In this document: positions 1-13,728 of the stretch, in pieces | Layout of the letters: every line of letters begins with the position of its first letter | Numbering within the stretch: the first letter of the stretch is position 1 | Origin: a virus | IMG/VR virus record: IMGVR_UViG_3300028019_000001 | Coordinates: 1-13,728 of that record | Direction: 5' to 3' (one strand) | DNA: 13,728 bases | The notes under the pieces: model-generated | The model's database searches: none | Told to the model about the DNA's origin: nothing | The model's input: the letters and a program-made list of their open reading frames with translations, nothing else | Translations under genes and position numbers: made by a program

Positions 1-25
1 CCGGCGCGCACGACGCCGGATACCC
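1..25. repeat. Terminal direct repeat copy 1 (CCGGCGCGCACGACGCCGGATACCC), identical to 13704..13728
   Basis: Read directly: the first 25 nt equal the last 25 nt. The frame entering from 13667 continues with no stop into ORF 57..395. This implies a circular or terminally redundant unit of 13,703 bp. Confidence 0.9.
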
Positions 26-395
26 GGCTGCCCCGTGCGCCATCTGCGAGCGCGACATGCTGCCCGGCGAGCGCATCGCCCGCCTGCTGCCGGACTTCTG
101 CCCCGGTGGCTGCGGGGGCCTGACCGAAGACCCGTATGGGGGTCCGTGCCGGGCATGCTGGGACAAGGTGCCCGGACCGTACCCCGGTGACGAGCGGTGC
201 GACTGGTGCCAGAAGTTCCTGTCTGGTGACGGCTTCTGCGACGACGGGCGGATCTTCTGCGGTGAGGACTGTGCCGGGGCGTACGCGGCTGAATGGGGAG
301 TCGGCTTACGGTCTCTCGCGTTGACTGAACCCTGCTCACCCGGTCCGGAACACCGTCTCAGTAACGTCGGATTCCCTGGCGCCCGGTTGACGTAG
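1..395 (+). CDS. Cys-rich multi-CxxC zinc-finger-like protein, 3' portion of a wrap-around gene (start at 13667; about 143 aa once the ends are joined)
   Basis: The frame is open from position 3 to TAG at 393-395 and in phase with the ATG at 13667. Motifs present: CAIC, CPGGC, CRAC, CDWC and FCDDGRIFCGEDC (TRASH/FCS-like CxxC...CxxxC). GC3 is high up to about 300, then a low-GC3 tail follows that includes a TTA codon at 306-308. Confidence 0.75.
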   Translation, partial: GAHDAGYPAAPCAICERDMLPGERIARLLPDFCPGGCGGLTEDPYGGPCRACWDKVPGPYPGDERCDWCQKFLSGDGFCDDGRIFCGEDCAGAYAAEWGVGLRSLALTEPCSPGPEHRLSNVGFPGARLT

Positions 396-509
396 ACGGT
401 TGACCGTGGCGGCGCTCCCCGGCCATGACCGGCCGCGGTTCGGCGCTAGGCCATGGAGGTCGGCCCCGTGCCGCCGCGGGCATCGGCCTGGACCCCATGC
501 GCCGCGGAC

Positions 510-764
510 CTATGCGGAAGGTCCCGCTGATGATCCACTGTTCTGTCCGATGAAGTAACCACCGATGCCAAGCACGCCGAGGATCAAGACCGCTATCCCG
601 ACGGGCATCAGTTGCGGCCGCCGGCCTCCAGGAGCCGTCAGAAGCCTCCTGGAGCGGCCATGCGTCGTTAGGGCTGGAGCGGGGTGAGTCTGGGCCGCGA
701 GCACCTCTGTGAGGCGCTCAGCCACGTCGGCGGGCATCGCAGGGCGCGCGGCGGCGGCGAGCAC
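510..764 (-). CDS. Small membrane-anchored hypothetical protein (84 aa from GTG; alternative ATG at 737)
   Basis: ORF with one clear hydrophobic helix (PVGIAVLILGVLGIGGYFIG). GAAGG lies about 10 nt upstream of the GTG. The N-terminal MPADVAERLTEVLAAQ resembles segments seen in actinobacterial anti-sigma-like membrane proteins (from memory). Codon bias is only moderate. Confidence 0.4.
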   Translation of the reverse strand: MLAAAARPAMPADVAERLTEVLAAQTHPAPALTTHGRSRRLLTAPGGRRPQLMPVGIAVLILGVLGIGGYFIGQNSGSSAGPSA

Positions 765-907
765 CGATCGCTACCTTCGCAACGTCGCGCCGGCCGACCT
801 GATCAAGCCCGGCCAGACGCGGACCTGGCAGCCGGGCGCCTGAGACGTCAGGCGTGAGACGCGGCCGGCGCCGCAAAGCTGAAACAGGAACCTGAAACGG
901 CCCGCGG

Positions 908-1081
908 CTACTTGCCGCCGCGCCGCCGCTTGCCGCCGAGCGGCGCTGACACGCTCGTCCAGCTCCGGCGGCCGGTGCGGACGCCCGCCGATCCCCACAC
1001 GCGGCCCTTGCCGCTTACCGGCGCGCTCAGCCGGATACGGAACGGCCCGATCTTCACGGAGTCGCTGACCCTGACGCCCAT
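908..1081 (-). CDS. DUF4236-like small protein (57 aa)
   Basis: MGVRVSDSVKIGPFRIRLSAPVSGKGRVWGSAGVRTGRRSWTSVSAPLGG follows the DUF4236 pattern as I remember it (MGxRxxxSxKIGPxxRxxLS...G...G.R.G.R...S.P..G). GGAAGGAAA sits 6-7 nt upstream of the ATG at 1081. The start is trimmed from ORF 908..1132. Confidence 0.6.
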   Translation of the reverse strand: MGVRVSDSVKIGPFRIRLSAPVSGKGRVWGSAGVRTGRRSWTSVSAPLGGKRRRGGK

Positions 1082-1177
1082 CGCGTGTTTCCTTCCCGGC
1101 CTCGGGTTGCCGAGAGTGAGACCGTCTGCCATGGAGACGCGCGGCGCGGCCTGGCGGTTGACATCGATGTCCGGCTA

Positions 1178-1193
1178 AGCGGAGCGCTCCGCT
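1178..1193. promoter_or_regulatory. Perfect 16-bp palindrome AGCGGAGC|GCTCCGCT, candidate operator
   Basis: Read directly. It lies in the 434-nt divergent non-coding region between the DUF4236 gene (start 1081, minus strand) and the first late-operon gene (start 1516, plus strand). Confidence 0.4.
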
Positions 1194-1515
1194 AGCCAAC
1201 CTTCAACCAGTACATGAAGGTTCCTGGCTGATATGCACAAGGAACCGAGCCGAAACGCGGCCATTTAGCTGCGATGTCTTGTAGATCATGGTGCCTGGCG
1301 TGGGACAATGGGAAACGTCGCCTTGCGGCGGCCCGGTGCGCTGAGCTTGCCGTACCGGGCCGCCCCCGGTGGTTGTGCAAAGAGCTGGTACCGCCTCAGA
1401 GGGCCGCCCGATCAGCGGCCGGGGCGATGAGCGGCTGAAGGCGCGCGGGGACAGGGCGGCGCAATCACTGCTGCACGCCCCTTTGCGCTGGGGCGTACCC
1501 GTGGAAGGCGACGAC

Positions 1516-1755
1516 ATGAGCTTGACCGAAGACGGCTTCTGCCCGCGGAACAGCGGGCGCCCCGATCTCTACCCGCACGCACTGCCGAAAGCCTCTGGCG
1601 CCGCGGCTGGCCGCCTGGACGAGGTGACCGAGTCCGGTGCGCAGCCGAAGCCGCAGCCCGCCGTACAGGCGCCTCCTGCGGCTGCTGCGCCGCAAGCCGC
1701 GAGTACCGTGCTCCGGCCAGCAACGGCCGCACCCGCCGCGGTGGCGACGCTGTGA
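1516..1755 (+). CDS. Hypothetical Pro/Ala-rich protein (79 aa)
   Basis: ATG at 1516 is preceded by GGAAGG 7 nt upstream. The upstream part of ORF 1369..1755 has poor GC3 (caa, aga, ggt, tca, gta). The stop overlaps the next start (GTGA at 1752-1755). Confidence 0.55.
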   Translation: MSLTEDGFCPRNSGRPDLYPHALPKASGAAAGRLDEVTESGAQPKPQPAVQAPPAAAAPQAASTVLRPATAAPAAVATL

Positions 1756-2432
1756 GGCGCGCAGAGATCCCGGACGGCCTGCTGAAGGCGCGCCGGGCGG
1801 ACATCGACCGGATCCCTGGCCGGGTGCTCGCCAAGATGACCAGGGGCGACCTGCCGGACCGTCTCGTGGCCGCTGGCGAGTACCGGCGGCGCGCGAGCGT
1901 CCCGCACCTGGACGGCGACTTGTACCGGTACCGGCTCGGCCTGGCGACCGAGGTACTGACCACCGATGACTCGCAGCGTGCCGCCGAGCTGGTCAAGGGC
2001 GCCGGAGTCGGCGTGACCATCGGCACCGGGCGCGCGGCACCGCCAGCGTCGGCGGCGGGATCCGCTGCGGGCGGCCGGGTGACGAAGGCGGCGCCCGCCG
2101 AGATCATCAGGTACCCGGCGGTCGATCTCCTGACGCAGAAAGCCGCCGCCGCGCGATCTGTCGCCGTCGCGCTGACCGAGCTGGCCAAGACGGGCCGTCT
2201 CGGCGAGCTGGGCCGAGATCTCACCAGCATGCACCGGGATATCAGTTCCGGCCGGATGGAGCTCGTCAAGGGGCCCGTGGTCGCGGGGCCGCCGGAGAAC
2301 AGCCTGGCGAAGAGCGCCGGAGCGGCAGGCCTGTCGAAGGCCGCCGAGTACGAGCGGAAAGCGGCAGTCGTGACCGATCCGGAACTGAGGCGCGGCTATC
2401 TCGAGCTGGCGCGCCAGGAGCGTGCGTCATGA
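1752..2432 (+). CDS. Hypothetical protein (226 aa)
   Basis: Strong GC3 bias throughout. GTGA overlap with the upstream gene and ATGA overlap with the downstream gene. No motif recognised. Confidence 0.8.
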   Translation: MRRAEIPDGLLKARRADIDRIPGRVLAKMTRGDLPDRLVAAGEYRRRASVPHLDGDLYRYRLGLATEVLTTDDSQRAAELVKGAGVGVTIGTGRAAPPASAAGSAAGGRVTKAAPAEIIRYPAVDLLTQKAAAARSVAVALTELAKTGRLGELGRDLTSMHRDISSGRMELVKGPVVAGPPENSLAKSAGAAGLSKAAEYERKAAVVTDPELRRGYLELARQERAS

Positions 2433-2644
2433 CGGTGACCACGCAGGTGGCGACGGCGCTGTCGGCAGCCAAGCGGTATCAGCTGGCGGTCGGCGCGACG
2501 GCCGCGCAGGCCGGATGCCCGCAGGTCCACATCACTCCCGGCTGGGTCTCAGTGCCCTGCCATGGCGCCGACATCGCCTCGTTCGGCGCGACCCTCGCGG
2601 CCGTGCTCAACAACACGGCCAACTACGGAGGAGCAGGAACATGA
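2429..2644 (+). CDS. Hypothetical protein (71 aa)
   Basis: ATGA overlaps at both ends (2429-2432 and 2641-2644). Good GC3. Confidence 0.7.
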   Translation: MTVTTQVATALSAAKRYQLAVGATAAQAGCPQVHITPGWVSVPCHGADIASFGATLAAVLNNTANYGGAGT

Positions 2645-3774
2645 GCGCGGACACCAGCGGACCGGGCCGCAGGCTGACCCCCGAGCAGGAGCAGCGCGCC
2701 GCCGAGCTGTTCGCCGCCGGGCGCAGTGAACGCGAGGTCGCCGACGAGCTCGGCTGCTCGGCGTCGACTGCGCACCGGCTGCGCGAGCGCCTGGAGCGCG
2801 CCGGCGGCACCCCTGACGAGCCGGAAGCACCGGCGGCGCCCGCTCGCGACGAGCACGAGGCCGCCGGGGCGTTCGAGCTGACCGCGCAGCACCCGCTGCG
2901 CGAGTCCCCCGGCGAGCTGGGGGAGCTTCAGGCCGAGCGCGACCGCCTCGCGGACCTCTTGCAGACCTACGGGGACCGCGCGGCAGCGAGCCGCCAGGCG
3001 CTGGCCGACCTGGAAACCGAGCGCGTGGAACTGCTCACCGAGGGGAAGGACGCGGCGCCGCTGCGGCCGAGGCGGGCGGACGCTGAGGCCGACCTCGCCG
3101 ACAGTGAGACGTCCGCGCAGATCGCCGCCGACCGAGTGGCCGCCGTCGACGTCCGCATCGCGCAGGTGCGGGCAATGCGCGACCTGGCGGAGATGCGGGA
3201 CCAGCTTGAAGCCGCGGTAGCGGAGCGGGACACCGTGTGCGCGGCTACCGGCGATCGCATGCGCGCCGCCGTGCTGGCCGTCAGGCGGGCGGCCGAGGAG
3301 TTCACGGCGGCCCTGGCCGACGAGCGCGCCGCCACGGAGCGCACGGAGCAGCTCGGGCAGGACACGGCGAACCGGGCGCTGGCTCTCGGCGAGCGCGTCC
3401 CGGTCGCGCCGCCGGCGCGCTCCACTGCCCTGTGGGTGGACAACGCCTTTTCCGCGGGGAAGCCGGTGGCGCTTTCGCGAGCGATCAGCGAGGCGCGCAT
3501 CGGGCGTACTGAGGCCGTCGCCACGTGCCTGGGTGAGGCGTTCGGCTGGCTGCCGCCGGATCCGGCCGTGATCGCCGCTGAACGCGAGCGCATGCGGCAA
3601 CTGCGCGCCGCGCCGCCCCCGCCCCCGCCTTCGGTGGAGCATCCCGCGCACTGGCCTGCCGCCGTCAGCGTCGACAGCCACGGCCGGCCGCTCGCGCCGC
3701 CCGACCCGGAACGGCAGCGCGCGCAGACGGCGGTACGTCCTGGCGCGCTCGGCTTTACGCCGTGGCCGGGCTGA
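2641..3774 (+). CDS. N-terminal HTH plus long coiled-coil protein (377 aa); the HTH resembles those of small terminase subunits and Hin/sigma-70 region 4
   Basis: The start is trimmed from ORF 2422..3774 to the ATG at 2641, which has GGAGGAG upstream and an ATGA overlap. RRLTPEQEQRAAELFAAGRSEREVADELGCSASTAHRLRERL is a classic helix-turn-helix. The rest is Ala/Glu/Arg-rich and heptad-like, with a PPPPPP tract near the C-terminus. Confidence 0.8.
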   Translation: MSADTSGPGRRLTPEQEQRAAELFAAGRSEREVADELGCSASTAHRLRERLERAGGTPDEPEAPAAPARDEHEAAGAFELTAQHPLRESPGELGELQAERDRLADLLQTYGDRAAASRQALADLETERVELLTEGKDAAPLRPRRADAEADLADSETSAQIAADRVAAVDVRIAQVRAMRDLAEMRDQLEAAVAERDTVCAATGDRMRAAVLAVRRAAEEFTAALADERAATERTEQLGQDTANRALALGERVPVAPPARSTALWVDNAFSAGKPVALSRAISEARIGRTEAVATCLGEAFGWLPPDPAVIAAERERMRQLRAAPPPPPPSVEHPAHWPAAVSVDSHGRPLAPPDPERQRAQTAVRPGALGFTPWPG

Positions 3775-3793
3775 GCGGCGCGTGACCATGACT

Positions 3794-3830: not shown

Positions 3831-3869
3831 ACACAAGCGGAGCACCGGCGGCCGTGAGGAGGTGAGCTG

Positions 3870-6683
3870 ATGGAAGAGGACGTCGCCCTCGCGTTCATTG
3901 CGGATGTTGAGGAAGCAGTAGCCAACGTCCGCGAGCTGCAGGAGGCATCCGCGCAGCTCGCCGAGACGGCCGAGGAATCCTCGTCGGTCGCCGAAGAGGC
4001 GTTCTCGTCGTACGTCGAGGCGTCATCGGCCGCCACGGTGGCCGCTACCGACCTTGAGGAAGCGTCGGCGCGGCTGGCCGAGGTCCAGGCCGACGCGGGC
4101 GCCAGCGCCGAGGACATAGCCGACGCGCAGACTACCTACGGCGCGGCCCTCGACCGGGCAAGCGAAGCGACCATCGCCGCGATCGACGCGCAGGAGCGCC
4201 TTGCCGCGGCCGAAGGCGAGGCGGCCGAGGCCGCCGCGGCGAGCGCGGCGACCCAGGGCGAGGCCGCCGAGACGGTGGCGGCGAAGGATGACCTGGCGGG
4301 CGACGCCGCCGAGGGCATGGGCGCCAAGTACAAGCTGGCGCTGGTGGCCGTCGCCGTCGGCGCGGGGCTGGCGGTCAAGGGCGCGATGAGCTTCCAGCAG
4401 GCCACCACGCGCCTGGTGACCACCGCGGGCGAGTCCGCCAAGAACCTGACCATGGTGCAGCAGGGCATCCTCGGCATGACGGACGCCACCAACCAGAGCG
4501 TCACCAGCCTCTCCAGCGGCATGTACATGGTGGAGTCGGCCGGGTTCCACGGTGCCGCGGGCCTCGAGGTGCTGAAGGCCGCCGGGCAGGGCGCGGCGAT
4601 GGAGCAGGCCAACCTGTACGACGTCGCCAACGCGGTCACGTCCGGCCTGAACGCCTACGGGCTCAGCGCCAGCCACGCCACCAGCTTCACCCAGCAGATG
4701 CTGGCCACCGTCGGCCAGGGCAAGATGACGATGGAAGACCTGGCGTCGTCGCTGTCCGCCGTGCTGCCCTTCGCCGCCGCCGCGCACATCTCGTTCGACC
4801 AGGTGGGCGGCGCGCTCGCCACGATGACCGGTATGGGCATGTCGGCGCAGCAGTCCACGCAGGACCTGGCCAACGTGATCCGGAACATCCTCAAGCCGTC
4901 CGGGACCGCCTCGGCTGAGATGCGCGCCCTCGGCCTGAACGCTAACGAGGTCAGCGCCAGCGTCGGCAAGGTGGGGCTGACCGGCGTGATGCAGGAGTAC
5001 ACCGACGCCATCCTGAAGAACACCAGCGGCGGCATGGTGATGCTCGGCTACATGAAGGAGATGACCCCGCAGGCGCAGGGGCTCGCCCGCGAGATCATGG
5101 CAGGGACGATCAGCACCCAGCAGCTGCGGACAGCGGTGTACGGCCTGAATCCGGAACAGGCCAAGCTGATCAGCCTGTTCGAGACGGCGGCGACGTCGGC
5201 GACGGGCCTCAAGCAGACCTATGCGGGCGCGATGGCCGAGCTGACCGGCGGCGCGACCGGCCTGAACGTGGCGCTGATGCTGACCGGCAGCCACGCGAAA
5301 ACCTTTGCCGACAACGTGAAGACGATCGGTGCCGCAGCGAAGACCAGCGGCAGCGACGTCGCCGGGTGGGGCGCCTACCAGAAGCAGGCGGGCGTCGAGC
5401 TGAGCGAGCTCGTCAAGACGACGGAGGCGATGGGCGACGAGCTCGGCCTGGTGCTGCTGCCTGCCCTCGAAGCCGTTCTCGGCCCGCTGCGTGACCTGTT
5501 CGGCGTGATCGCCCGCAACCGTGCCGCGGCGATCGCCTTCGCCCTCGTCATCGGCACCGTGCTGTCGGGGGTCGCCTTCGTCAAGCTCAAGAACGTCCTG
5601 ACCGAGGCGAAGGACGGGTTCAGCGCGCTCTACGACGTGGTGACCGGCCTCCCGGCCGCCGCGTCATCCGTCGTGTCGTTCGCCTCCACCGTGGCGCAGG
5701 GCCTCTGGCGGGCAACCGTGGCCACGGGAACGTGGATAGCCGAGCACGCCGTCGCGACCGCGCAGTTCATCGCGCAGAACATCGCGCAGGCCGCCAGCGC
5801 GATGGCCGCGTTCGTGGCCGAGAACCTCGCCACGCTCGGTATCGGCATCGCGATCGTCGCGCTGATCGCGGTCATCGTGCTGCTGGCCACGCACTGGAAA
5901 GAGGTCTGGTCGGTCGTCAAGACGGTCGGCCTCGACGCCTGGCACTTCATCGACGGCCGCCTGATCCAGCCGTTCATGGCCGGGGCCGACGAGCTGGTCA
6001 AGTGGGTCGATTCGCACTGGCGGCTGCTCGCGGCGATCATTTCCACGGTGCTGCTGGGGCCGGCGGAATTCCTGATCTCGTTCATCGCGGCGCGCTGGGC
6101 GGAGTTCGCGCGCCTGACGTCGCAGGTCACCGACGCGGTGACCGGGTACTTCGGGCGGCTGCCGGGCCGGATCCTGTCGCAGCTGGCCGCGCTGCCGGCC
6201 GGGTTGTACAACATGGGTCGCAACATCGTCATGGGCCTCATTCACGGCATCGAGGACCAGGCGGGCCCGCTGCTGTCGTACGTCGGCGGCCTCGCCGGTG
6301 ACGTCGAGCACACCTTCGCGTCCGCGCTGCACATCTTCAGCCCCAGCCGCGTCTTCTTCATGCACGGCGTCAATACCATGCTCGGCTACATCAACGGCGT
6401 CAAGTCGATGGCGGCGCAGGTGAAAGCGACGATGGCCGGCGTCGGCGGCCAGGTGGCGGCGGCCGGGACCGGCACCGGCGCCGCGCTCATGCCAGCGGGC
6501 AGCACGGCCGGCGGCAGGATCAATGTCACGGTGCCGCTGTCCGTGGCGTTCAACGCCGGGACGAGCGGTCTCAACTCGCCGCAGTTCTACCAGTACATCC
6601 AGGCCGCCGTTCAGGAAGCCGTGCTCCGGTGGGGGCTGAACAACCCCGGTACCGGGTTCGTGCTCCCAGGGAGGGCCGGATGA
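3870..6683 (+). CDS. Phage tail tape-measure protein (937 aa), TP901-type core
   Basis: GAGGAGG RBS at 3856-3862. Acidic Ala-rich N-terminus. The core KYKLALVAV...FQQATTRLVTTAGES...MYMVESAGFHGAAGLEVLKAAGQGAAMEQANLYDVANAVTSGLNAYGL...MEDLASSLSAVLPFAAAAHISFDQVGGALATMTGMGMSAQQSTQDLANVIRNIL matches the tape-measure core family as I know it. Several hydrophobic helices lie in the C-terminal half. Confidence 0.92.
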   Translation: MEEDVALAFIADVEEAVANVRELQEASAQLAETAEESSSVAEEAFSSYVEASSAATVAATDLEEASARLAEVQADAGASAEDIADAQTTYGAALDRASEATIAAIDAQERLAAAEGEAAEAAAASAATQGEAAETVAAKDDLAGDAAEGMGAKYKLALVAVAVGAGLAVKGAMSFQQATTRLVTTAGESAKNLTMVQQGILGMTDATNQSVTSLSSGMYMVESAGFHGAAGLEVLKAAGQGAAMEQANLYDVANAVTSGLNAYGLSASHATSFTQQMLATVGQGKMTMEDLASSLSAVLPFAAAAHISFDQVGGALATMTGMGMSAQQSTQDLANVIRNILKPSGTASAEMRALGLNANEVSASVGKVGLTGVMQEYTDAILKNTSGGMVMLGYMKEMTPQAQGLAREIMAGTISTQQLRTAVYGLNPEQAKLISLFETAATSATGLKQTYAGAMAELTGGATGLNVALMLTGSHAKTFADNVKTIGAAAKTSGSDVAGWGAYQKQAGVELSELVKTTEAMGDELGLVLLPALEAVLGPLRDLFGVIARNRAAAIAFALVIGTVLSGVAFVKLKNVLTEAKDGFSALYDVVTGLPAAASSVVSFASTVAQGLWRATVATGTWIAEHAVATAQFIAQNIAQAASAMAAFVAENLATLGIGIAIVALIAVIVLLATHWKEVWSVVKTVGLDAWHFIDGRLIQPFMAGADELVKWVDSHWRLLAAIISTVLLGPAEFLISFIAARWAEFARLTSQVTDAVTGYFGRLPGRILSQLAALPAGLYNMGRNIVMGLIHGIEDQAGPLLSYVGGLAGDVEHTFASALHIFSPSRVFFMHGVNTMLGYINGVKSMAAQVKATMAGVGGQVAAAGTGTGAALMPAGSTAGGRINVTVPLSVAFNAGTSGLNSPQFYQYIQAAVQEAVLRWGLNNPGTGFVLPGRAG

Positions 6684-7050: not shown

Positions 7051-7074
7051 GGCATCCGCGACTGAGGCTTCTGA

Positions 7075-7570: not shown

Positions 7571-7587
7571 TCCTGAGATCGGAGTGT

Positions 7588-7612
7588 GCGGGTTCGAGTC
7601 CCGCCCGGCTGC
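7588..7612 (+). other. tRNA 3'-end-like segment (T-arm GCGGG-TTCGAGT-CCCGC plus 7-nt acceptor-like CCGGCTG and one further base); not a complete tRNA
   Basis: Canonical GGTTCGAGTCC T-loop with a perfect 5-bp stem, read directly. I could not fold an anticodon arm, D-arm or matching 5' acceptor strand upstream. It is therefore a fragment, possibly an att-core relic. Confidence 0.45.
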
Positions 7613-7630
7613 CCCGCCTAGCATGGGCGC

Positions 7631-7948
7631 ATGAGCGAACCACTCGCACGATACGAGTTCCCGCCGGGGGCCAAGATCATCTCGTACTGCCCGCTGTGCT
7701 CGTGGCAGCACCACGACGGGCCGCTGCCGGAAGGGTCCGGGGCGACCGCCGACGAGGTGGCCGCGGACATCCTGGCGAAGCACTTCGCTGCCCTCGAGGA
7801 GATCAGCCGGGCTCACCTGGAAACCCATTCGCTCCTGGAGTGGGCACAGGAAGTGACGCGGCTCGGGGGCGAGGCGGCACGGCTCGAGGTCGAGGCGGAA
7901 CGGCTGCGCGGGATCGTGGCCGAACTAACTCCGAAACAGCGGGCGTGA
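7631..7948 (+). CDS. Hypothetical protein (105 aa) with one CxxC and a C-terminal coiled-coil
   Basis: Good GC3 in this frame, in contrast to the overlapping ORFs 7438..8001 and 7391..7828. No clear Shine-Dalgarno sequence. Confidence 0.7.
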   Translation: MSEPLARYEFPPGAKIISYCPLCSWQHHDGPLPEGSGATADEVAADILAKHFAALEEISRAHLETHSLLEWAQEVTRLGGEAARLEVEAERLRGIVAELTPKQRA

Positions 7949-8176: not shown

Positions 8177-8437
8177 TCACACGTGGTCGTCGGCCCACTC
8201 GCCGCTCTTACGGTCGAGCAGCGGCTTGCGGTAGTGCGCGCCATGGTGCTCCTCCAGCTCCATCAGCACGTCGGCCAGCGCGTGAATGAGCACGCGGCGG
8301 GCGCGCTGGTCAGTCACGCTGGCGAGCCGCTGGCCGCTCTTGAAAGCGAAGACAACGGGCCGCACGGCCCACCGCAGGTACGCGCCCGCGGCGAGCACGG
8401 CCGCCGCGATGATGCCGGTAATGATCAAGATGTTCAC
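8177..8437 (-). CDS. Small membrane protein (86 aa from GTG), N-terminal transmembrane helix
   Basis: Start trimmed from ORF 8177..8536 to the GTG at 8437 (VNILIITGIIAAAVLAAGAYL...), with GGGGA upstream. The upstream extension is Arg-rich and overlaps a strong hairpin. The exact start is uncertain. Confidence 0.6.
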   Translation of the reverse strand: MNILIITGIIAAAVLAAGAYLRWAVRPVVFAFKSGQRLASVTDQRARRVLIHALADVLMELEEHHGAHYRKPLLDRKSGEWADDHV

Positions 8438-8484
8438 AATCGTCCCCACTCGGGTTATCTCACGTCTTCGGGAAACCGGGCGCC

Positions 8485-8525: not shown

Positions 8526-8561
8526 TGGCGGTTCACTCGCGGGCCACCGCGCCGTTTTCAG

Positions 8562-9014
8562 CTACGGAGCGGGTGCCCGCCGGGGCGCGGCCACCGTGCC
8601 GTCCTTGAATACGGCGCGGGTGCCACTGTCGGGAGCTGTCAGACGGGCATCCGGTGCCGTCGCCGGTACCGGAGGGTGGCGCGCCGGTTGCGCCGCCGCC
8701 GGGCCTTGTCGGCGTTGATCACGGCGGCCCCGGCGAGCGCTCTGACGCCAGCCTCGACCACCTCGGGACACGTGGCCCACAGCCATGCTGCCGAGGATCA
8801 TGCCGTGCACGACCGTGCCGAGATCCATGCTCTTGGTCGACTGTTTCGGATGCCGCCGGAAGTGGTCGAAGATCGCCGGGCAGTTCGGGGGCATCAGCAG
8901 CCGCGAACTGGTGACCGACAGCGACCCGCCGTCGACGGGATCAGCGTGGTACTGGTCTTCGGGGATGTCGCCGTAGAGGCCGGGTTCGGTGATGGTGCCG
9001 GTGAACTCAGGCAT
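8562..9014 (-). CDS. PD-(D/E)XK nuclease-like (RecE/DUF3799-type) protein, N-terminal part only; probable frameshift near 8780 and truncation (pseudogene candidate)
   Basis: ATG at 9014 has a GGAGGAG RBS and an 8-nt overlap with the upstream stop. GLYGDIPEDQYHADPVDGGSLSVTSSRLLMPPNCPAIFDHF...MDLGTVVHGMILG matches the conserved N-terminus of this family as I remember it. After ILGS the called frame becomes Arg-rich with poor GC3. The +1 frame (..CPEVVEAGVRALAGAAVINADKARRRRNRRATLRY.., stop at 8639-8641) carries the GC3 signal. No catalytic D...ExK region is visible. Confidence 0.55.
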   Translation of the reverse strand: MPEFTGTITEPGLYGDIPEDQYHADPVDGGSLSVTSSRLLMPPNCPAIFDHFRRHPKQSTKSMDLGTVVHGMILGSMAVGHVSRGGRGWRQSARRGRRDQRRQGPAAAQPARHPPVPATAPDARLTAPDSGTRAVFKDGTVAAPRRAPAP

Positions 9015-9234
9015 CGGGCGCTCCTCCGGTTTCGGCGGGGCGCAGGTTGTAGGTCTGGTAGTCGTCGCAGTAGCCGGGGCAGGTGCAGCCGCCGCACGCG
9101 AAGCAGTGCTGGTGGTCGCATTGCCACTGGTCGAAGTCGTCGTAGCAGGCTTCGTCGCAGTCGTGCTCGCAGGGCTCCGCCTCGTAATCGCAGGGCTCCG
9201 CCTCGTAATCGCCGTCGTACAGCTGACTAGCCAT
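9007..9234 (-). CDS. Hyper-acidic Cys-rich small protein (75 aa: 10 Cys, 12 Asp, 7 Glu, 1 Arg, 0 Lys)
   Basis: Start trimmed to the ATG at 9234 (GGGGGA RBS, 8-nt overlap with the upstream stop). Sequence: MASQLYDGDYEAEPCDYEAEPCEHDCDEACYDDFDQWQCDHQHCFACGGCTCPGYCDDYQTYNLRPAETGGAPDA. Confidence 0.7.
   Translation of the reverse strand: MASQLYDGDYEAEPCDYEAEPCEHDCDEACYDDFDQWQCDHQHCFACGGCTCPGYCDDYQTYNLRPAETGGAPDA
9169..9210. repeat. Perfect 21-bp tandem duplication (GCAGGGCTCCGCCTCGTAATC x2) encoding DYEAEPC x2
   Basis: Read directly: 9169-9189 equals 9190-9210. In frame within CDS 9007..9234. Confidence 0.9.
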
Positions 9235-9532
9235 CGGTCCCCCTGCCTGCGGTGGTCTTGAGTGCACCGCACCAGCCGGATTCCATGCACGGCACGACGC
9301 AGACGCAGTCGCCGGGGTCGCCGATCTCGGTGAGGTCGCTGCAGAACCCGCACGGCTCGATACGGGCGAGCTCGTCGGCGAGCTCCCCGGCACGGCGCAG
9401 GACGATCCGGAGGCCGACCGCGATCAGGCAGAGCACCAGGCCGGCAGGCAGGCCCCACGGCCATCCGGCCGCAGCGCCGATCGCGGCCGCGGCGGCGACG
9501 CAGACCAGGGCGTACGGCAGGTGGCGCCTCAC
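9227..9532 (-). CDS. Membrane protein with Cys-rich C-terminal domain (101 aa)
   Basis: GTG at 9532 with a GTGA overlap with the upstream stop. Hydrophobic LPYALVCVAAAAAIGAAAGWPWGLPAGLVLCLIAVGL is followed by CGFCSDLTEIGDPGDCVCVVPCMESGWCG. Confidence 0.7.
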   Translation of the reverse strand: MRRHLPYALVCVAAAAAIGAAAGWPWGLPAGLVLCLIAVGLRIVLRRAGELADELARIEPCGFCSDLTEIGDPGDCVCVVPCMESGWCGALKTTAGRGTDG

Positions 9533-9984
9533 TGGCGTTCCCCTTCCTCGCCGCACTCCAGGCACCGGTAACCCGGATACGGTGACCCTTGGCATGTGCC
9601 GCAGGTGTACTCGCCGATCATCGTGATGAGGGTGCTGCCGACGACGCTGGCGAGCTTGGCGGCGATGTCGAGCGAGACGTTGGTGCCGTTGACGGCCCGG
9701 GCGATGGTCGGCGCGCTGACTCCGGCGCGTTCCTCCAGTTCGCCCTGTGTCCACCCGAGTGCGCGCAGCCGGGCGCGCAGGTGGGTGGCGTAGCGGGCCA
9801 TCACATCCGGTGTCTCCGGCTTGTCTCCCGTGCCATCGCCGCATACGGAGCAGTTGCCGGAGTCGCAGTAGTGACTAGCAGGGACGGGTGTTTCCTCCGC
9901 CTCCGCGTTGGCTCCCGGCATGCTGGCCAGCACGCGGGCGGCGATCGCGCCGCGGTTCGGACGCGGGTAGAGGTCGTCGGTCAT
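9529..9984 (-). CDS. XRE-family helix-turn-helix protein flanked by Cys clusters (151 aa); candidate repressor/regulator
   Basis: ATG at 9984 with an ATGA overlap. LRARLRALGWTQGELEERAGVSAPTIARAVNGTNVSLDIAAKLASVVG is a typical HTH_3/XRE motif. HYCDSGNCSVCG lies upstream of it and CGTCQGSPYPGYRCLECG (CxxC-N9-CxxC zinc-ribbon pattern) lies downstream. Confidence 0.8.
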   Translation of the reverse strand: MTDDLYPRPNRGAIAARVLASMPGANAEAEETPVPASHYCDSGNCSVCGDGTGDKPETPDVMARYATHLRARLRALGWTQGELEERAGVSAPTIARAVNGTNVSLDIAAKLASVVGSTLITMIGEYTCGTCQGSPYPGYRCLECGEEGERQ

Positions 9985-10238
9985 ACCCACCACTCCCCCC
10001 ACCGGTTGAGCCGGTCGTTCAGCCGGGCTTTCAGGTGCCGGCGGCCGACGCCGTGCACCACGCCGACGGGGCACTGATCGGGGCCGAGGTTGTCGGCGTA
10101 GGGCCGCAGCGTGGCCTCCCACACGCGCCCCAGGCCGTCGACGCGAATGCGCCGGATGTCGGCGACGACCCGGCCGCCGCAGGTGGCGACGGGGTTACGC
10201 CACAGCCGCCGCCACCGCTTGATCCGGATGGTGCTCAT
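9981..10238 (-). CDS. Hypothetical basic protein (85 aa)
   Basis: ATG at 10238 with an ATGA overlap with the upstream stop, and the stop overlaps the next start. Good GC3. ORF 9981..10523 trimmed. Confidence 0.7.
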   Translation of the reverse strand: MSTIRIKRWRRLWRNPVATCGGRVVADIRRIRVDGLGRVWEATLRPYADNLGPDQCPVGVVHGVGRRHLKARLNDRLNRWGEWWV

Positions 10239-10516
10239 GACGCGCCGCCCGGCAATGCAAGCTGCTCGCCGTCGGTGAACACCTGCTCGTCGCGGCGCGC
10301 GCCGAACGACGGCCCGGCGTAGGCGTAGCGGGCCGTCTTGCGGCGCAGTTCGCGGCCGAGGCGGGCGAGCAGCACCAGGCGGCGCGGCCACCGCGCGGCG
10401 GCGATCTCCTCCAGCGCGATGATCCGGGCCTCGAGGTGGCTCAGCTTCTCCTCGGTGACGTACTCCGACCACACGGCATCGCGGGCGAACTGCTCGGCGT
10501 CGAACGGGGCGCTCAC
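10235..10516 (-). CDS. Hypothetical protein (93 aa), paralogue of 10513..10860
   Basis: GTG at 10516 with a GTGA overlap. FDAEQFARDAVWSEYVTEEKLSHLEARIIALEEIAAARWPRRLVLLARLGRELR aligns with LDVERFARASNYQSWLTDWAISALEDRVVRIEELIAARWWQRPGVRRKLARELR in the upstream gene. Confidence 0.75.
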   Translation of the reverse strand: MSAPFDAEQFARDAVWSEYVTEEKLSHLEARIIALEEIAAARWPRRLVLLARLGRELRRKTARYAYAGPSFGARRDEQVFTDGEQLALPGGAS

Positions 10517-10860
10517 AGGGCATCCTCGCTGCCAGCGTTCCGGGCGCGGGTCACCTGCGGGATCCGCACCTCGCCTGCGTACTGCACGCGGCGGGTCGCG
10601 AAGTCGCGCGGCATCCAGTCGCCGTACCCGGCGACCGAGGCGCGCAGCTCGCGCGCCAGCTTCCGGCGCACGCCGGGCCGCTGCCACCAGCGGGCGGCGA
10701 TCAGCTCCTCAATGCGGACAACGCGGTCCTCGAGCGCGCTGATCGCCCAGTCGGTGAGCCAGCTCTGATAGTTGCTCGCGCGGGCGAACCGCTCGACATC
10801 GAGCGGTTCGCGCAGCGCTGCGTTCTCCTCGCGCAGGCGATCGGTCGCGGTTGCGGCCAT
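10513..10860 (-). CDS. Hypothetical protein (115 aa), first gene of the leftward operon, paralogue of 10235..10516
   Basis: ATG at 10860 with a GAGGAG RBS 5 nt upstream. Strong GC3. Confidence 0.8.
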   Translation of the reverse strand: MAATATDRLREENAALREPLDVERFARASNYQSWLTDWAISALEDRVVRIEELIAARWWQRPGVRRKLARELRASVAGYGDWMPRDFATRRVQYAGEVRIPQVTRARNAGSEDAL

Positions 10861-10914
10861 TACGCTCCTCAGGTCGGAGCGTCAGACAAGGATAATCCTC
10901 GCGGTACGTTGCCT

Positions 10915-10940
10915 CGTGACCTGCGTTTTAGCAGGTCACG
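10915..10940. promoter_or_regulatory. Perfect 10-bp inverted repeat CGTGACCTGC-GTTTTA-GCAGGTCACG, candidate operator of the leftward operon
   Basis: Read directly. It lies 55-80 nt upstream of the ATG at 10860, in the 403-nt divergent control region. Confidence 0.5.
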
Positions 10941-11070
10941 CACGTAGCTTAGGCTTGGATACGGGATGAGTAGCCGGTCTGACGCCATCGGTTGAATTAG
11001 CCGCTTGAGCTGGCACTTCTCCGCTCAAGTGGCATCACTATTGCACGCGCGTAGTTGCTCTGTCAAGTAT

Positions 11071-11131
11071 CCGTGTTTCGCGGGACATGAGACCTCGCAC
11101 CGTGCTTCCGGTGTTTGCGGGACATCCGACC
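11071..11131 (+). repeat. Two imperfect 24-nt direct repeats, CCGTGTTTCGCGGGACATGAGACC (11071-11094) and CCGGTGTTTGCGGGACATCCGACC (11108-11131)
   Basis: Read directly. The shared core is GTGTTT(C)GCGGGACAT..GACC, with copies 37 bp apart, in the divergent control region upstream of the rightward operon. Confidence 0.6.
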
Positions 11132-11263
11132 AATCGGCCATAGTGAGCATCGTCCGTGGAACTACACGGAGGTTTTTACCCGAAGACCGCTGGAATGTCA
11201 GTGGCCTCGGTCATCCTGAATCCGGCACACGACACCCGTGGGCTACTACGCACGTAAGTCCCG

Positions 11264-11890: not shown

Positions 11891-12121
11891 ATGCCCGAAC
11901 GACGACAGCGGAATGTCCGCCCTGAGATTGCCAGCGCCCGCGCTCGCCTCGCCGCGCTGACCGCGCGCCGCGCTGATCCCGACGCCATCGCGACCGCCAG
12001 GGCCGCCCTCGCGTCCGCCAGGGCGCGAGCCGCGGTATGCGAGCTGCTCGGCCTGCCCGCGGCCGAGCGTATGCAGCTCGCCGGGCTCTTGCTCACCGGG
12101 AGCGGTGGCGATGGCACCTGA
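11891..12121 (+). CDS. Hypothetical Ala/Arg-rich helical protein (76 aa)
   Basis: GGAGG lies 8 nt upstream of the ATG. Good GC3. Confidence 0.65.
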   Translation: MPERRQRNVRPEIASARARLAALTARRADPDAIATARAALASARARAAVCELLGLPAAERMQLAGLLLTGSGGDGT

Positions 12122-12130
12122 CAAGCGAAA

Positions 12131-12154
12131 CGGCCCGCACCGGAGCACGGGCCG
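12131..12154 (+). terminator. Hairpin CGGCCCG-N10-CGGGCCG (7-bp stem)
   Basis: Read directly, 10 nt after the stop at 12121. No T-tract. Confidence 0.25.
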
Positions 12155-12226
12155 CCAGAAGTCGCCGCCAACGACTAACGCCAGCATAACCGGGTACTTC
12201 GCTGTGCGCGGCGAGGCGGCGCGGTT

Positions 12227-12934
12227 ATGGGCGCATCGAACGCGCTCCGCGCCTACTCGACGTACGCGGCCAGGGTTTCTCCCGCATCGCTCAGCGTGCT
12301 GGTCTACATGGCCCTGGTGTCGATGGACAAGGACGCCGAGCCCTGGTGGTCGCAGGGACACGAGATACTCGCCGCCATACCGCTCGGACGCAGGGGGCCG
12401 ATCAGGAACGCCGACCTGCGCGCCGTCGAACGGGCCATCACGTCACTGTTTGAGGCCGGGGCCATCACGGTCGATAAGCACTCTTCCGGACATCCGGGGA
12501 ATTCGCAGCACGTCCGCTACCGGCTCTGGCTCACCCATCCCGCACCCGACGAAAACCGTCGTGTGGAAAACCGGGCCGCACCCGACGAAAACCGTCGTGT
12601 GGAAAACCGGGCCGCACCCGACGAAAACCGTCGGGCGCCAGGTGATGGCACCCGACGAAAAGTGGTCTCGCACCCGACGAAAAGTGGTCTCGCACCCGAC
12701 GAAAACCGTCGGGCTAAGGAGACAGAGGAGGACGAGGAGCTAAATAACAAGCAGGATGAAGATGACGCTCGACGTACGACCCGTACAGGTTTCGCGCGTG
12801 GGGACGCGGGCGACGACAACGAGAATTTCGACAATTTCCGGCTGGACGAAGAAGCCGAGCGGCGCCGCCAGCTCGACGCCCTCACCGAATGGATGCGGCA
12901 GCATCCCGAGCAGGCCGAGGCGGTGACGCCATGA
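12227..12934 (+). CDS. Replication initiator-like winged-helix protein (235 aa), lambda-O-like architecture with its binding-site array inside the gene
   Basis: The N-terminus LRAYSTYAARVSPASLSVLVYMALVSMDKDAEPWWSQGHEILAAIPLG...RAVERAITSLFEAGAITV is typical of wHTH phage/plasmid initiator-like proteins (from memory). The central part is encoded by the iteron array and the C-terminal third is acidic. An ATGA overlap links it to the next gene. Confidence 0.75.
   Translation: MGASNALRAYSTYAARVSPASLSVLVYMALVSMDKDAEPWWSQGHEILAAIPLGRRGPIRNADLRAVERAITSLFEAGAITVDKHSSGHPGNSQHVRYRLWLTHPAPDENRRVENRAAPDENRRVENRAAPDENRRAPGDGTRRKVVSHPTKSGLAPDENRRAKETEEDEELNNKQDEDDARRTTRTGFARGDAGDDNENFDNFRLDEEAERRRQLDALTEWMRQHPEQAEAVTP
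12542..12714 (+). repeat. Iteron array: six copies of GCACCCGACGAAAA (starts 12542, 12578, 12614, 12648, 12670, 12692); candidate origin of replication
   Basis: Read directly. There are two perfect 36-bp units and one 34-bp unit, then two perfect 22-bp units (GCACCCGACGAAAAGTGGTCTC) and a final copy. Four copies contain the dyad CGACG-AAAAC-CGTCG. An AT-rich stretch at about 12715-12850 follows (GAGCTAAATAACAAGCAGGATGAAGATGAC, AATTTCGACAATTTCC). Confidence 0.85.
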
Positions 12935-13191
12935 TCGTCACCACGACCAACGGCGACCTCGCCGCGCTCGCCCGGGCCGAGCTGGAGCGCCACAAGGCCC
13001 GCACACCGCAGCGGCATGCCGCCGCGATGCTGTGGGTCGCGCTCATCACCACAGAGACCGCCGGCAGCGCCAGGCGGGCACTGGACACGTTCGGCACCGG
13101 CCAGGGCCGCAGCGGCGCGCTCGAGCTGCTCGGGCGCCTCATCGTCGCCATCGGCCAGGACCACGACGCCGCGAAGGACACCGCGCCATGA
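12931..13191 (+). CDS. Hypothetical protein (86 aa)
   Basis: ATG at 12931 with ATGA overlaps at both ends. Trimmed from ORF 12889..13191. Confidence 0.7.
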   Translation: MIVTTTNGDLAALARAELERHKARTPQRHAAAMLWVALITTETAGSARRALDTFGTGQGRSGALELLGRLIVAIGQDHDAAKDTAP

Positions 13192-13670
13192 CCACGACCA
13201 TCACCGTCTACGGCCAGCCCGCGCCGCAGGGCAGCAAGCGCGCGTTCGCCGTACGCGGCAAAGGCGGGGTACCCACCGGCCGCGTCGCCGTCATCGAGTC
13301 ATCGCACGACCGCGTTAAGAGCTGGCGTCAGGCTGTCATCGACGCCGCGGTCTCCGTGCGTCCTGATGTCCCGCTGCACGGCCCGCTCGCCGTCGAGATG
13401 ACGTTCCTCATGCCGAGGCCGAAAGGCCACTACGGCACCGGCCGCAACGCCGGGAGGCTCCGCGACAGCGCCGCGGAGCGCCCATCCGGGAAACCCGACC
13501 TGTCCAAGCTGCTGCGCGCCACCGAAGACGCCCTCACCGACGCCGGAATGTGGGCCGACGACGCCCAGGTCGTCGAGTACGCGCGGCTGGCCAAGACCTA
13601 CGCCGACCACCGGCCGCCTGGCGCCGTCATCACCATCCGAACCCTCGAGTCAGGAGACACAACGCCATGA
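13188..13670 (+). CDS. rusA: RusA-family crossover junction endodeoxyribonuclease (160 aa)
   Basis: ATG at 13188 (ATGA overlap). ITVYGQPAPQGSKR..., then PLAVEMTFLMPRPKGH, then GKPDLSKLLRATEDALTDAGMWADDAQV. This matches the RusA pattern (PDxDNLxKxxxDAL....DD) including the acidic catalytic residues. Confidence 0.9.
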   Translation: MTTTITVYGQPAPQGSKRAFAVRGKGGVPTGRVAVIESSHDRVKSWRQAVIDAAVSVRPDVPLHGPLAVEMTFLMPRPKGHYGTGRNAGRLRDSAAERPSGKPDLSKLLRATEDALTDAGMWADDAQVVEYARLAKTYADHRPPGAVITIRTLESGDTTP

Positions 13671-13728
13671 CCACCACCATGCCGCCCGGAACGCTGCTCG
13701 CCACCGGCGCGCACGACGCCGGATACCC
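13667..13728 (+). CDS. 5' part of the wrap-around Cys-rich protein gene (continues at position 26 of the window)
   Basis: ATG at 13667 with an ATGA overlap with the rusA stop. The frame is in phase with ORF 57..395 through the 25-bp terminal identity. Confidence 0.75.
   Translation, partial: MTTTMPPGTLLATGAHDAGY
13704..13728. repeat. Terminal direct repeat copy 2, identical to 1..25
   Basis: Read directly. Confidence 0.9.

Follow-up and report, generated by a model that had tools for sequence, protein, structure and literature searches.

Background

P4 is a satellite able to persist as a plasmid, and the P4 delta and P2 Ogr proteins are Cys-rich late activators. To our knowledge, carriage of a tail tape measure protein (TMP) is not a feature of the PICI, SaPI or P4 classes. 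TMP-encoding satellites of 11 kb are described in Mycobacteriaceae, namely the Extracellular Prophage-Inducing Particles (EPIPs) of Mycolicibacterium aichiense, e.g. Alyssa1 (OR387110), which are reported as satellites with altered tail length (PMC12822802). In Streptomyces, the satellite MiniFlayer is integrase-less, having lost integration (PMC10690885).

In this work we present an analysis of a window of 13,728 nucleotides (the whole stretch of DNA analysed), which combines a phage-like TMP gene with a replication module of its own and which is supported as the entire sequence of an extrachromosomal element, 13,703 bp long and circular (or circularly permuted), probably a phage satellite.

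Closure of the circle

The two ends of the window, 1..25 and 13704..13728, are identical (CCGGCGCGCACGACGCCGGATACCC); 25 bp is the longest terminal identity, the 25-mer has no further copy on either strand, and, given the window base composition, chance alone would put this 25-mer at the opposite end with a probability of 7.5e-14. The preliminary description had read this identity, with an open reading frame crossing it, as the sign that the genome is complete, 13,703 bp long and circular or circularly permuted, and no slice of a chromosome. The frame belongs to g143, a gene of a Cys-rich zinc-ribbon-like protein, whose ATG overlaps the rusA stop (ATGA, 13667-13670), as described earlier. Its 5' part (13667..13728, + strand) continues in frame from 13728 into the 3' part (26..395, +; TAG at 393-395), and the gene joined over 13728->26 encodes 143 aa with 12 Cys and no internal stop, in agreement with the length of about 143 aa expected earlier.

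An identical 143-aa protein is encoded by one contiguous gene on the contigs L001, L002 and L004, where the 25-bp sequence is single-copy and continuous and a 100-nt string over the join has an exact match. L001 and L004 both come from the ENA contig k141_194056, and L002 is a JGI contig. The ENA contig, a MEGAHIT assembly of 13,786 bp put together here from L004 and L001, has ends that overlap exactly over 141 bp at a different place, window positions 7078-7218, and it crosses the window join at 100% identity; L002 (10,238 bp) covers 10670 -> 13728/26 -> 7204, join included, with 2 mismatches. The closing contigs are identical or nearly so and may stem from one site, one project or related samples, so they are independent in assembler and accession but perhaps not in population. 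GC3 is 0.92 before and 0.80 after the join, and the three-base GC periodicity stays in phase over it. The order of the circle also recurs in diverged relatives: g76-Rep-g86-RusA-g143 is followed by g84-g377-TMP-g119 in the integrated L020, and L019 keeps g76-g86-RusA-g143-g377 up to the contig end, which precedes the TMP gene. Different flanks beyond the ends, which had been named as one observation that would speak against a circle, were found on no contig in exact-protein look-ups. Both assemblies and the synteny of L020 and L019 agree on the circle and demonstrate its closure, and the 25-bp identity most simply represents the assembly overlap left by opening it.

Replication module

The rightward replication operon (+ strand) starts with g120 (11264-11626) and g76 (11891-12121), whose homologs in L036 (64% and 69% identical) lie directly after the integrase; g76 is present also in L012 and L020. 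The next gene, g235 (12227..12934), encodes a lambda-O-like replication initiator (phrog_391, 4.5e-5), with a 62% identical homolog in L036 and no match in phage or plasmid collections. It is followed by g86 (12931..13191), a conserved small protein with homologs in L009, L019, L020 and L036, and the entire g120-g76-Rep-g86 block adjoins the integrase in L036. A putative origin lies within the initiator gene (12540..12725, +), an iteron array of 36-bp and 22-bp units with six exact copies of GCACCCGACGAAAA, i.e. 6 matches against 0.01 expected; the ENA contig is 58 bp shorter at the iterons, and this deletion frameshifts the initiator. Downstream, rusA (13188..13670, +) encodes a 160-aa Holliday-junction resolvase (PF05866, 4e-12; phrog_140, 4e-29). 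On sequence grounds the replication module is a lambda-O-like initiator with six iterons in its own gene and then RusA; neither a P-like loader was recognised nor a partition system found in the window. The g143 protein, with a weak DZR_2 match under the Pfam cut-off (E 0.002), has N-terminal homology in L019 and L020 directly 3' of RusA, and from its position it might be a late-gene regulator.

Late-like module and tape measure protein

A conserved non-coding leader (1317..1512, +) with a GC-rich hairpin at about 1327-1365 (-39 kcal/mol, z = -2.8) precedes the genes g84-g226-g71-g377. Its DNA is about 79% identical to that of L006, L007 and L008, the proteins being only about 45% identical, and few covarying pairs were seen in an alignment of 5 sequences. 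The first gene, g84 (1501..1755, +), encodes a conserved small protein (homologs in L010, L011, L012, L013, L021 and L036). The product of g226 (1752..2432, +) is helical, with a C-terminal helix-loop-helix after a disordered linker (AF2 pLDDT 79), and belongs to a family of 39 representative clusters; it gave no significant Foldseek match and no PHROG match. In hhalign its C-terminus aligns with the last 100 aa of the protein in scaffold position of phage L026 (probability 88.9%, E 2.4e-6), and g226 is a candidate scaffold-like (capsid-binding) protein. After g71 (2429..2644, +), a conserved small protein translationally coupled on both sides (GC3 frame; homologs in L006 and L010), comes the family marker g377 (2641..3774, +), with an N-terminal HTH_23 (Pfam, 2e-7), a long antiparallel coiled coil and 37 homologs (AF2 pLDDT 82). 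Its fold searches gave no significant match, the best viral one being a weak 'small terminase' (E 7.6e-3), and tblastn of g377 or Rep against a phage collection had no match; the predicted architecture may tentatively be called small-terminase-like. Since g377 and the g226 C-terminal motif are also present in L006 and L010, which are TraB-type elements resembling AICEs (integrative and conjugative elements of actinomycetes), both may have a general role in regulation or maintenance instead of acting on packaging or the capsid.

The largest gene (3870..6683, +) encodes 937 aa matching PF10145 (1.7e-20), TIGR01760 and many PHROG TMP families. Residues 1-594 show 78% amino acid identity to P0091, and the gene 82-87% DNA identity to the TMP gene of the L026 phage structural operon, a head-tail operon with protease, scaffold-position protein, tube protein and TMP and with two small ORFs in chaperone position immediately upstream of the latter. 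The similarity covers the full length of the protein, both ends included, and ends at the edges of the gene. Judged by these matches, the ORF is a bona fide phage tail TMP, close to identical with that of a real phage. It is followed, with an ATGA overlap, by g119 (6680..7039, +), a conserved TMP partner that had no match in family searches; its homologs (43-61%) lie directly 3' of a TMP-like gene in L012, L013, L020 and L036. In each of L011, L012, L020 and L036 an intact TMP-like ORF (573-1006 aa) precedes g119, and such conservation across several diverged lineages argues for selection on function.

Remaining genes and integrated relatives

A small ORF, g57 (908..1081, - strand), is called in L001-L004 and has a 57% identical homolog in L036; g105 (7631..7948, +) is a gene call with exact copies in L003, L004 and L005, and g90 (8177..8449, -) is called as a predicted small membrane protein. 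Further leftward genes (all -) are the small early-type g75 and g101 (9007..9532; g75 77% identical to an L006 ORF), g151 (9529..9984), a Cro/CI-type HTH_3 regulator (PF01381, 5.9e-10; PHROG transcriptional regulators, repressors), and the small g85, g93 and g115 (9981..10860; from GC3 frames, with g93 and g115 homologs in L023). The leftward and rightward operons are divided by a divergent intergenic control region (10861..11263) of lower GC, about 58-62%, with a single sigma-70-like match, TTGACA-18-AATAGT (- strand, 11066-11037).

The complete circle has no integrase, Xis or att core (tRNA-derived or other), no capsid, portal, large terminase or TraB/FtsK-like translocase, and no NUDIX, GntR or DUF2637 gene; PADLOC gave no defence family match. 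Of the earlier statement that structural and integration genes are absent, the integration half holds, and the structural half needs correcting for the TMP. The module g84-g226-(g71)-g377-TMP-g119 recurs in 14-15-kb elements integrated in actinomycete chromosomes, e.g. at tRNA-Ser in L012 (14.4 kb, 58-bp att repeat) and at the 3' end of a sigma-70 gene in L036 (15 kb, 25-bp att repeat). No capsid, portal, TerL or TraB is annotated in L011, L012, L020 or L036. The host is a high-GC soil actinomycete. In the best reading, these relatives make up a family of 14-15-kb mobile elements that has not been described before, and the window is an integrase-less, plasmid-state member of it.

A probable phage satellite in plasmid state and its alternatives

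Having its own origin and a phage-like TMP without integrase, capsid or conjugation genes, the element most likely hitch-hikes on a phage from a plasmid state, and from its gene content we consider a phage satellite the probable explanation. Theta-type replication from the iteron origin would maintain it, and it would spread as a satellite of an L026-type siphophage, the helper supplying capsid, tail tube and TMP chaperones. A TMP fitting the tail of the helper would come from the element itself, possibly along with the scaffold-like g226 and the small-terminase-like DNA-binding g377, by which assembly and packaging would be redirected; control of the late-like operon might lie with g143, which is Cys-rich, and with the conserved hairpin leader.

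The strongest competitor, to which we give perhaps one chance in a few, is a cryptic decaying plasmid that arose by deletion from an integrative element. With int, xis and att gone, only a working O-like replicon would keep it alive, and its TMP would be cargo, or a decoy hampering the tail assembly of a related phage as a defence, and no means of transfer. Interference of mobile-element genes with tail assembly is a known defence strategy (PMC11364771), the origin looks functional from its sequence, and the lack of integrase, att, TraB, capsid and terminase would fit. Two pseudogenes, which suggest decay, sit exactly where relatives have xis, regulator or int genes. The first (7072..7640, +) is the C-terminal TPR half of an XRE/NsdA-type regulator (NCBIfam NF053720, 1.6e-8) with strong codon bias; it has no start codon before 7438, its full-length homologs have 250-296 aa and an N-terminal XRE HTH, and by these features it is a 5'-truncated pseudogene or recombination scar where relatives have xis and regulator genes. 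The second (8562..9014, -) is evidently also a pseudogene, the N-terminal fragment of a RecE/exonuclease VIII-like nuclease (phrog_412, 1.1e-14, confined to residues 5-76) that then runs out of frame, as visible in the GC3 plot and translations; it is identical in L003-L005 and so is not an assembly error. Against mere decay speak the intact TMP-like genes and g119 of diverged lineages, the end-to-end similarity to a phage TMP and, for a decoy, the PADLOC result.

The phage satellite reading is compatible with a different topology, a matter separate from the choice between lifestyles: linear, circularly permuted and terminally redundant DNA or a concatemer, as made by headful packaging. Such DNA also assembles as a circle and sequence cannot tell the forms apart; PICMIs and VEIMEs are satellites packaged as concatemers, as far as their citation in PMC12822802 goes, and the Logan contig L003 begins one base before window base 1, hinting at a non-random break. 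The MEGAHIT contig, however, opens at an unrelated point and the iteron origin argues for a circular replicating stage, which leaves a molecule that is not a closed circle rather unlikely.

We regard the excised circle of an ordinary AICE as improbable. Although g377, g71, the g226 motif and the leader are common to elements integrated at tRNA-Arg, those carry a Tyr-integrase, NUDIX, a DnaB-type (L006) or DUF3631 (L010) replication gene, a TraB-like ATPase and DUF2637, and the gene content of the circle contradicts such an origin. An assembly artefact, in which a linear slice only looks closed owing to a dispersed 25-bp repeat or to tandem duplication in the chromosome, is still harder to credit. 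In its favour, 25 bp is no common assembler k-mer and the supporting contigs are near-identical, possibly from related samples, but the 25-mer is unique within the element, the k=141 assembly closes elsewhere and reads through the join, and reading frame, codon bias and inter-lineage synteny run on over it. Least credible is an autonomous very small tailed phage, or cargo for a host contractile injection system (CIS; Sle1/Sle2-type TMP-related effectors exist in Streptomyces, PMC13277306): TMP, RusA, O-like Rep and the Cro/CI-like regulator look phage-like, but besides TMP only g377 (HTH/coiled-coil) exceeds 250 aa, and a capsid protein, portal or TerL would thus find no space. The window has neither a DUF4157 partner nor a sheath gene, and its TMP, of canonical PF10145 type, is the ortholog of the L026 protein; among the tail genes called in that phage there is one for a tube protein but none for a sheath.

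Comparison with known systems

The window resembles the lambdoid replication/nin module in having iterons inside the initiator gene, then RusA, then a small Cys-rich protein before a late-like operon; the O homology is weak (phrog_391, E 4.5e-5), with neither a P-like loader nor Q homology recognised. With AICEs of the pSAM2, SLP1 and pMEA300 type (PMC2440964) and with L006 and L010 it shares the 11-17 kb class, an actinomycete host, relatives integrating in tRNA genes, and the leader, g226 motif, g71 and g377 module. It differs in lacking integrase/att, TraB/FtsK translocase, Spd/DUF2637, NUDIX and GntR Kor, in place of which it has TMP and g119; 'tape measure' did not occur among the matches listed in a search combining it with AICE terms.

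Like PICI/SaPI-type satellites and the P4 plasmid state, the element is small, with its own origin and initiator and without capsid or lysis genes. By analogy, g226 might correspond to CpmB and g377 to TerS as candidate helper-matching genes, and g143 might loosely recall P4 delta and P2 Ogr; yet it lacks an integrase and is homologous to none of the PICI or P4 markers. The Streptomyces satellites MiniFlayer, MulchRoom and Ando (PMC10690885, PMC13587820) also have an actinomycete host, Ando being reported at about 13 kb, but their genes are those for capsid, portal, scaffold and terminase, with none for the tail, whereas the window is the inverse, with a tail TMP and no head genes. The EPIPs are, like the window, small actinobacterial circular contigs with their own TMP and without most tail genes, and we count their HTH protein with repeat-encoded segments as a further likeness. 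Homology between the two is limited to a generic TMP C-terminal motif (33% over 109 aa, E 3e-7); the EPIPs encode a capsid protein, head-tail adaptor, stopper, small terminase and serine integrase, none of which the window has, while the O-like replicon and RusA belong to the window and not to the EPIPs.

Closure of the sequence

Positions 1-25 and 13704-13728 both read CCGGCGCGCACGACGCCGGATACCC, which is the longest terminal identity. This 25-mer is present in two copies only, neither strand of the window holding a third, and the chance of meeting it at the opposite end is 7.5e-14 at the window composition (70.6% GC). The preliminary description had judged such an identity unlikely by chance and had concluded from it, and from a reading frame running across the junction, that the sequence is most simply a complete circular, permuted or terminally redundant genome and not a slice of a chromosome; our results agree with this. 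ATG 13667 overlaps the stop codon of rusA as ATGA, and the frame opened there, when joined from 13728 to 26, continues until the stop at 393-395, giving a protein of 143 aa with 12 Cys (g143; ORFs are named by length in amino acids). On the two sides of the join GC3 is high, at 0.92 and 0.80, with the three-base GC periodicity staying in phase across it.

Other public contigs were located by exact-sequence look-up using two window proteins as queries. When rebuilt from its parts L004 and L001, the ENA contig k141_194056 (ERZ27251138; 13,786 bp) shows an exact terminal overlap of 141 bp, the k-mer signature that MEGAHIT leaves on a circular path. This overlap maps to window 7078-7218, and the contig reads through the window join at 100% identity. 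The JGI contig Ga0310686_103490573 (L002, 10,238 bp) spans the join as well, running from window 10670 through 13728/26 to 7204 with two mismatches; over 7.2 kb, window positions 865 and 2008 are the sole differences, both C/T transitions. Across data sets the population is very clonal, and the supporting contigs resemble one another so closely that a single site may be their source. On L001, L002 and L004 g143 is called as a single 143-aa gene, with the sequence of the joined ORF. The diverged relative L020 has g76-Rep-g86-RusA-g143 followed by g84-g377-TMP-g119 (TMP, tail tape measure protein), the order in which the circle reads through the join, at 41-69% protein identity for most shared genes, while L019 holds the first part of this order up to g377, where its contig ends.

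Different flanks beyond both ends, an observation that had been named as speaking against closure, were seen on none of the contigs found by exact-protein look-up. Since other contigs close or cross the join and none has other flanks, we regard a closed assembly graph as well supported by the sequences compared; they fit a covalently closed circle, permuted or concatemeric DNA alike. An exact scan for the 25-mer in the metagenome_contigs and viral_contigs collections gave no match, the source being absent from both. An assembly artefact is contradicted by the tested features. The 25-mer was also considered as an att core and rejected, because it sits within g143 and has no counterpart among the att repeats of the relatives.

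The Logan contig SRR8392563_618499 (L003) starts with an 'A' equal to window 13703, followed by window 1-10118, and so opens one base before window base 1. Two assemblies break near the same point, perhaps because the population contains a variant there or because the molecule has a physical end.

Gene content

Gene content was derived from GC-frame analysis and from profile searches (Pfam, PHROG and NCBIfam scans of all ORFs). By both, the rightward (+) operon comprises g120, g76, a lambda-O-like initiator (Rep, 12227-12934; phrog_391, 4.5e-5), g86, RusA (PF05866; phrog_140, 4e-29) and g143. Inside the initiator gene, at 12542-12705, there are six exact copies of GCACCCGACGAAAA, where 0.01 are expected. 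The iteron array (12540-12725) differs between assemblies, the ENA contig being shorter there by 58 bp (one 36-bp and one 22-bp unit). This loss frameshifts Rep to 152 aa; the ENA version is a truly defective variant or else the result of an error in assembling the repeats.

Downstream of g143 about 1.1 kb shows little coding signal and contains a non-coding 200-nt leader (1317-1512), which keeps about 79% identity to distant relatives whose proteins are only about 45% identical. The leader contains a GC-rich 15-bp hairpin at about 1327-1365 (-39 kcal/mol, z = -2.8) and could act in front of the g84-g377 module as a regulatory RNA, as an attenuator or as a site of protein binding. The module that follows the leader consists of g84, g226, g71, g377 (HTH_23 and a long coiled coil; AF2 pLDDT 82), the 937-aa TMP and g119.

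Downstream of g119, in the interval before the leftward block, the window has pseudogene debris in place of the xis, GntR and other genes of the integrated relatives. An XRE/NsdA-type fragment at 7072-7640 lies in this interval; it has strong codon bias and no start codon before 7438, and retains the C-terminal TPR half while the N-terminal HTH is missing. Its best homologs come from soil contigs, the named ones including Nocardia and Actinoplanes, and because they are only 47-53% identical over most of the fragment, fresh capture of a host gene is unproven. The leftward (-) block is made of small genes, among them one for a Cro/CI-type HTH_3 protein. A RecE-like fragment (8562-9014, -) matches RecE/exonuclease VIII over its first ~76 residues, the remainder being out of frame. 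As its sequence is identical in three other contigs, it is a genuine pseudogene.

Pfam, PHROG and NCBIfam profiles gave no Phage_integrase or recombinase match in the window, a tRNA scan found no tRNA in it, and the att cores of relatives have no match there. The same three profile sets, applied to all window ORFs, detected no capsid, portal, TerL, tube or lysin gene. The only ORF of head-gene size is that of the HTH and coiled-coil protein g377, and no HK97-fold capsid, portal or large terminase was matched. No TraB/FtsK-SpoIIIE-type translocase was found, the TMP being the only large ORF of the window, and tblastn of window proteins gave no match within the TraB-like ORFs of the relatives L006 or L010. 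Spd, NUDIX (Pif) and GntR (Kor) were likewise absent from window profile scans; accessory genes of these types are present among L006, L010 and L012. No match came from Rfam and PADLOC scans of the window or from whole-window megablast against phage and plasmid collections. In tblastn, Rep had no match among phages or plasmids, and g377 none among phages. The contig is complete, and therefore the missing integrase, capsid, terminase and conjugation motor genes count as data. The earlier statement that structural and integration genes are both absent is right for integration and wrong for structural genes, a 937-aa TMP being present.

The tape measure gene

The ORF at 3870-6683 matches PF10145 (1.7e-20, 74 bits; cut-off 33), TIGR01760 (9.4e-12, 44.6 bits; cut-off 28.8) and PHROG TMP families (down to 2.7e-37). 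The closest homolog, P0091 of the phage contig L026 (JGI 3300076650, Ga0643766_0003477), shares 78% identity with it over residues 1-594, 125 of which form one unbroken identical stretch. In DNA, window 3856-5570 and 5846-6675 match L026 (9987-12725) at 82-87% identity. This similarity has sharp mosaic edges: it extends from 14 nt upstream of the start codon to the stop, with a divergent insert at 5570-5846, and the flanking genes are unrelated between window and L026. P0091 and a further homolog, P0101, lie in phage tail operons. The operon of L026 is an ordinary structural one and encodes an S78 protease, a scaffold-position protein and a tube protein; two small ORFs occupy the chaperone position before the TMP, which a 618-aa protein follows. 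Other close homologs are also found in phage contigs, namely L027, for which capsid and tail genes are recorded, and L028, an IMG/VR viral contig. These data identify a tail TMP orthologous to that of a phage tail operon. The TMP-like genes of the relatives L011, L012 and L020 match that of the window in the C-terminal region only (35-44%). We conclude that a TMP slot is retained in the family and that its occupant was recently exchanged with a phage in the window's lineage.

In g226 a C-terminal helix-loop-helix comes after a disordered linker, and this part of the protein can be aligned to the last 100 residues of the scaffold-position protein of L026 (BLASTP 3e-6; hhalign probability 88.9%, E 2.4e-6). 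The resemblance of g377 to small terminase is weak. Fold searches with g377 (PDB, BFVD) and g226 (BFVD) gave nothing significant, PDB sequence profiles gave no match, and neither fold nor PHROG searches supported a scaffold or small-terminase assignment. We treat a scaffold-like g226 and a small-terminase-like g377 as hypotheses.

Relatives of the element

There are 37 homologs of g377, all on high-GC contigs, with contexts of two types, TraB and TMP. No relatives of g377 were found in IMG/VR, and GTDB genomes gave one MAG locus only (L014). The TraB type is represented by L006 and L010, 15.5 kb in size, which sit in tRNA-Arg(ACG) with 45-bp flanking repeats and carry genes for tyrosine integrase, NUDIX, HTH regulators, DUF2637 and a replication protein of DnaB type (L006) or with DUF3631 (L010); L006 also has an HTH_17 Xis-type gene on record. 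Both encode a 680-aa ATPase (L006 12818-14866, L010 11241-13277) in which Walker A/B and TQRPD motifs are recognized by eye and which Pfam FtsK_SpoIIIE does not match. We read this ATPase as TraB-like, and both elements are organised like an AICE (actinomycete integrative and conjugative element). Elements of this kind would escape AICE finders that rely on profiles, their TraB-like ATPase having no FtsK_SpoIIIE match.

In the TMP type g84-g226-(g71)-g377 is directly followed by a TMP-like protein of 573-1006 aa and a g119 homolog; none of the genes called in these relatives looks like the ATPase that we read as TraB-like in L006 and L010, and their records list no head gene. L012 (14.4 kb) resides in tRNA-Ser(TGA) with a 58-bp repeat, L020 in the same tRNA-Ser(TGA), and L011 is a third example. 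L036, of about 15 kb, is bounded by a 25-bp direct repeat (3991-4015 and 19009-19033) that overlaps the final codons of a sigma-70 gene adjoining dnaG. A non-tRNA attachment site is unusual for this family. Immediately after its integrase L036 has the g120-g76-Rep-g86 block of the window, at 56-69% identity. With the module and TMP/g119 in common with L011, L012, L020 and L036, the window is a TMP-type member without integrase and att region. No description of the family formed by the window and its integrated relatives was found in the literature searched.

Nature of the element

The window is a closed replicon of 13.7 kb that has an initiator and an iteron origin, encodes a TMP orthologous to that of a phage, and lacks any means of its own to integrate, to be encapsidated or to conjugate. 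Our leading reading, to which we give somewhat less than an even chance, is that it persists as a plasmid and moves as a putative satellite of an L026-like siphophage. Maintained as a plasmid, the element would supply its own TMP for the tail and take head, tube and chaperones from the helper. Two features used to define satellites are seen here: genes for an autonomous virion and lysis are absent, and the element has its own origin and initiator (O-like, with six iterons). Candidate genes for matching or redirecting helper morphogenesis are the TMP, g226 and, weakly, g377, the g226 motif and g377 being also present in TraB-type elements. TMP-carrying 11-kb satellites, termed EPIPs (Extracellular Prophage-Inducing Particles), are known in Mycobacteriaceae (PMC12822802), and so is an integrase-less satellite in Streptomyces (PMC10690885).

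The main rival is a decaying cryptic plasmid, in which the TMP would be cargo or a tail-assembly decoy. An excised AICE is contradicted by the lack of integrase, att, TraB translocase, Spd, NUDIX and GntR in the window, and an autonomous phage with a complete Caudoviricetes genome by the lack of capsid, portal and large terminase. A Sle1/Sle2 effector pair of a contractile injection system (CIS), recognized by an adjacent DUF4157 partner and a CIS sheath cluster (PMC13277306), is rejected, g119 having no Pfam match and sheath genes being absent.

A wider proposal, which we consider rather unlikely, is that the window together with L011, L012, L020 and L036 makes up a new class of actinomycete phage satellites with a self-encoded TMP and no head genes. 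Its backbone module would be common with conjugative AICEs, one lineage having swapped the transfer module (TraB/Spd versus TMP/g119), and the window would be the member that gave up integration and lives as a plasmid.

What makes the element of interest is a replicon truly without integrase, capsid, terminase and conjugation motor, yet with a full-length TMP almost identical to that of a phage; with its integrated relatives it defines a family in which a component of phage tails is linked to backbones of AICE type. Should the family consist of satellites, TMP-bearing satellites would extend beyond a single mycobacterial report, transfer-module swapping between conjugation and phage parasitism would be demonstrated, and TMP identity would become a handle to predict helper phages from metagenomes. 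If not, the window is still a clean case of an integrative element that gave rise to an iteron plasmid.

Comparison with known systems

The SaPI protein CpmB mimics the scaffold of its helper, and the g226 C-terminus is reminiscent of such mimicry. AICEs have an integrase with att, usually in a tRNA, a TraB/FtsK translocase and Spd/NUDIX/GntR genes, whereas the window has none of these. The EPIP Alyssa1 (OR387110) has genes for capsid, adaptor, stopper, TerS and serine integrase, and its homology to the window is confined to a generic TMP C-terminal motif; g377 and g226 profiles matched none of the 12 CDS tested of 21 annotated. With only this motif aligning, EPIP membership is rejected. Capsid-forming Streptomyces satellites possess head genes, while the window, L011, L012, L020 and L036 present the inverse arrangement, a TMP without head genes.
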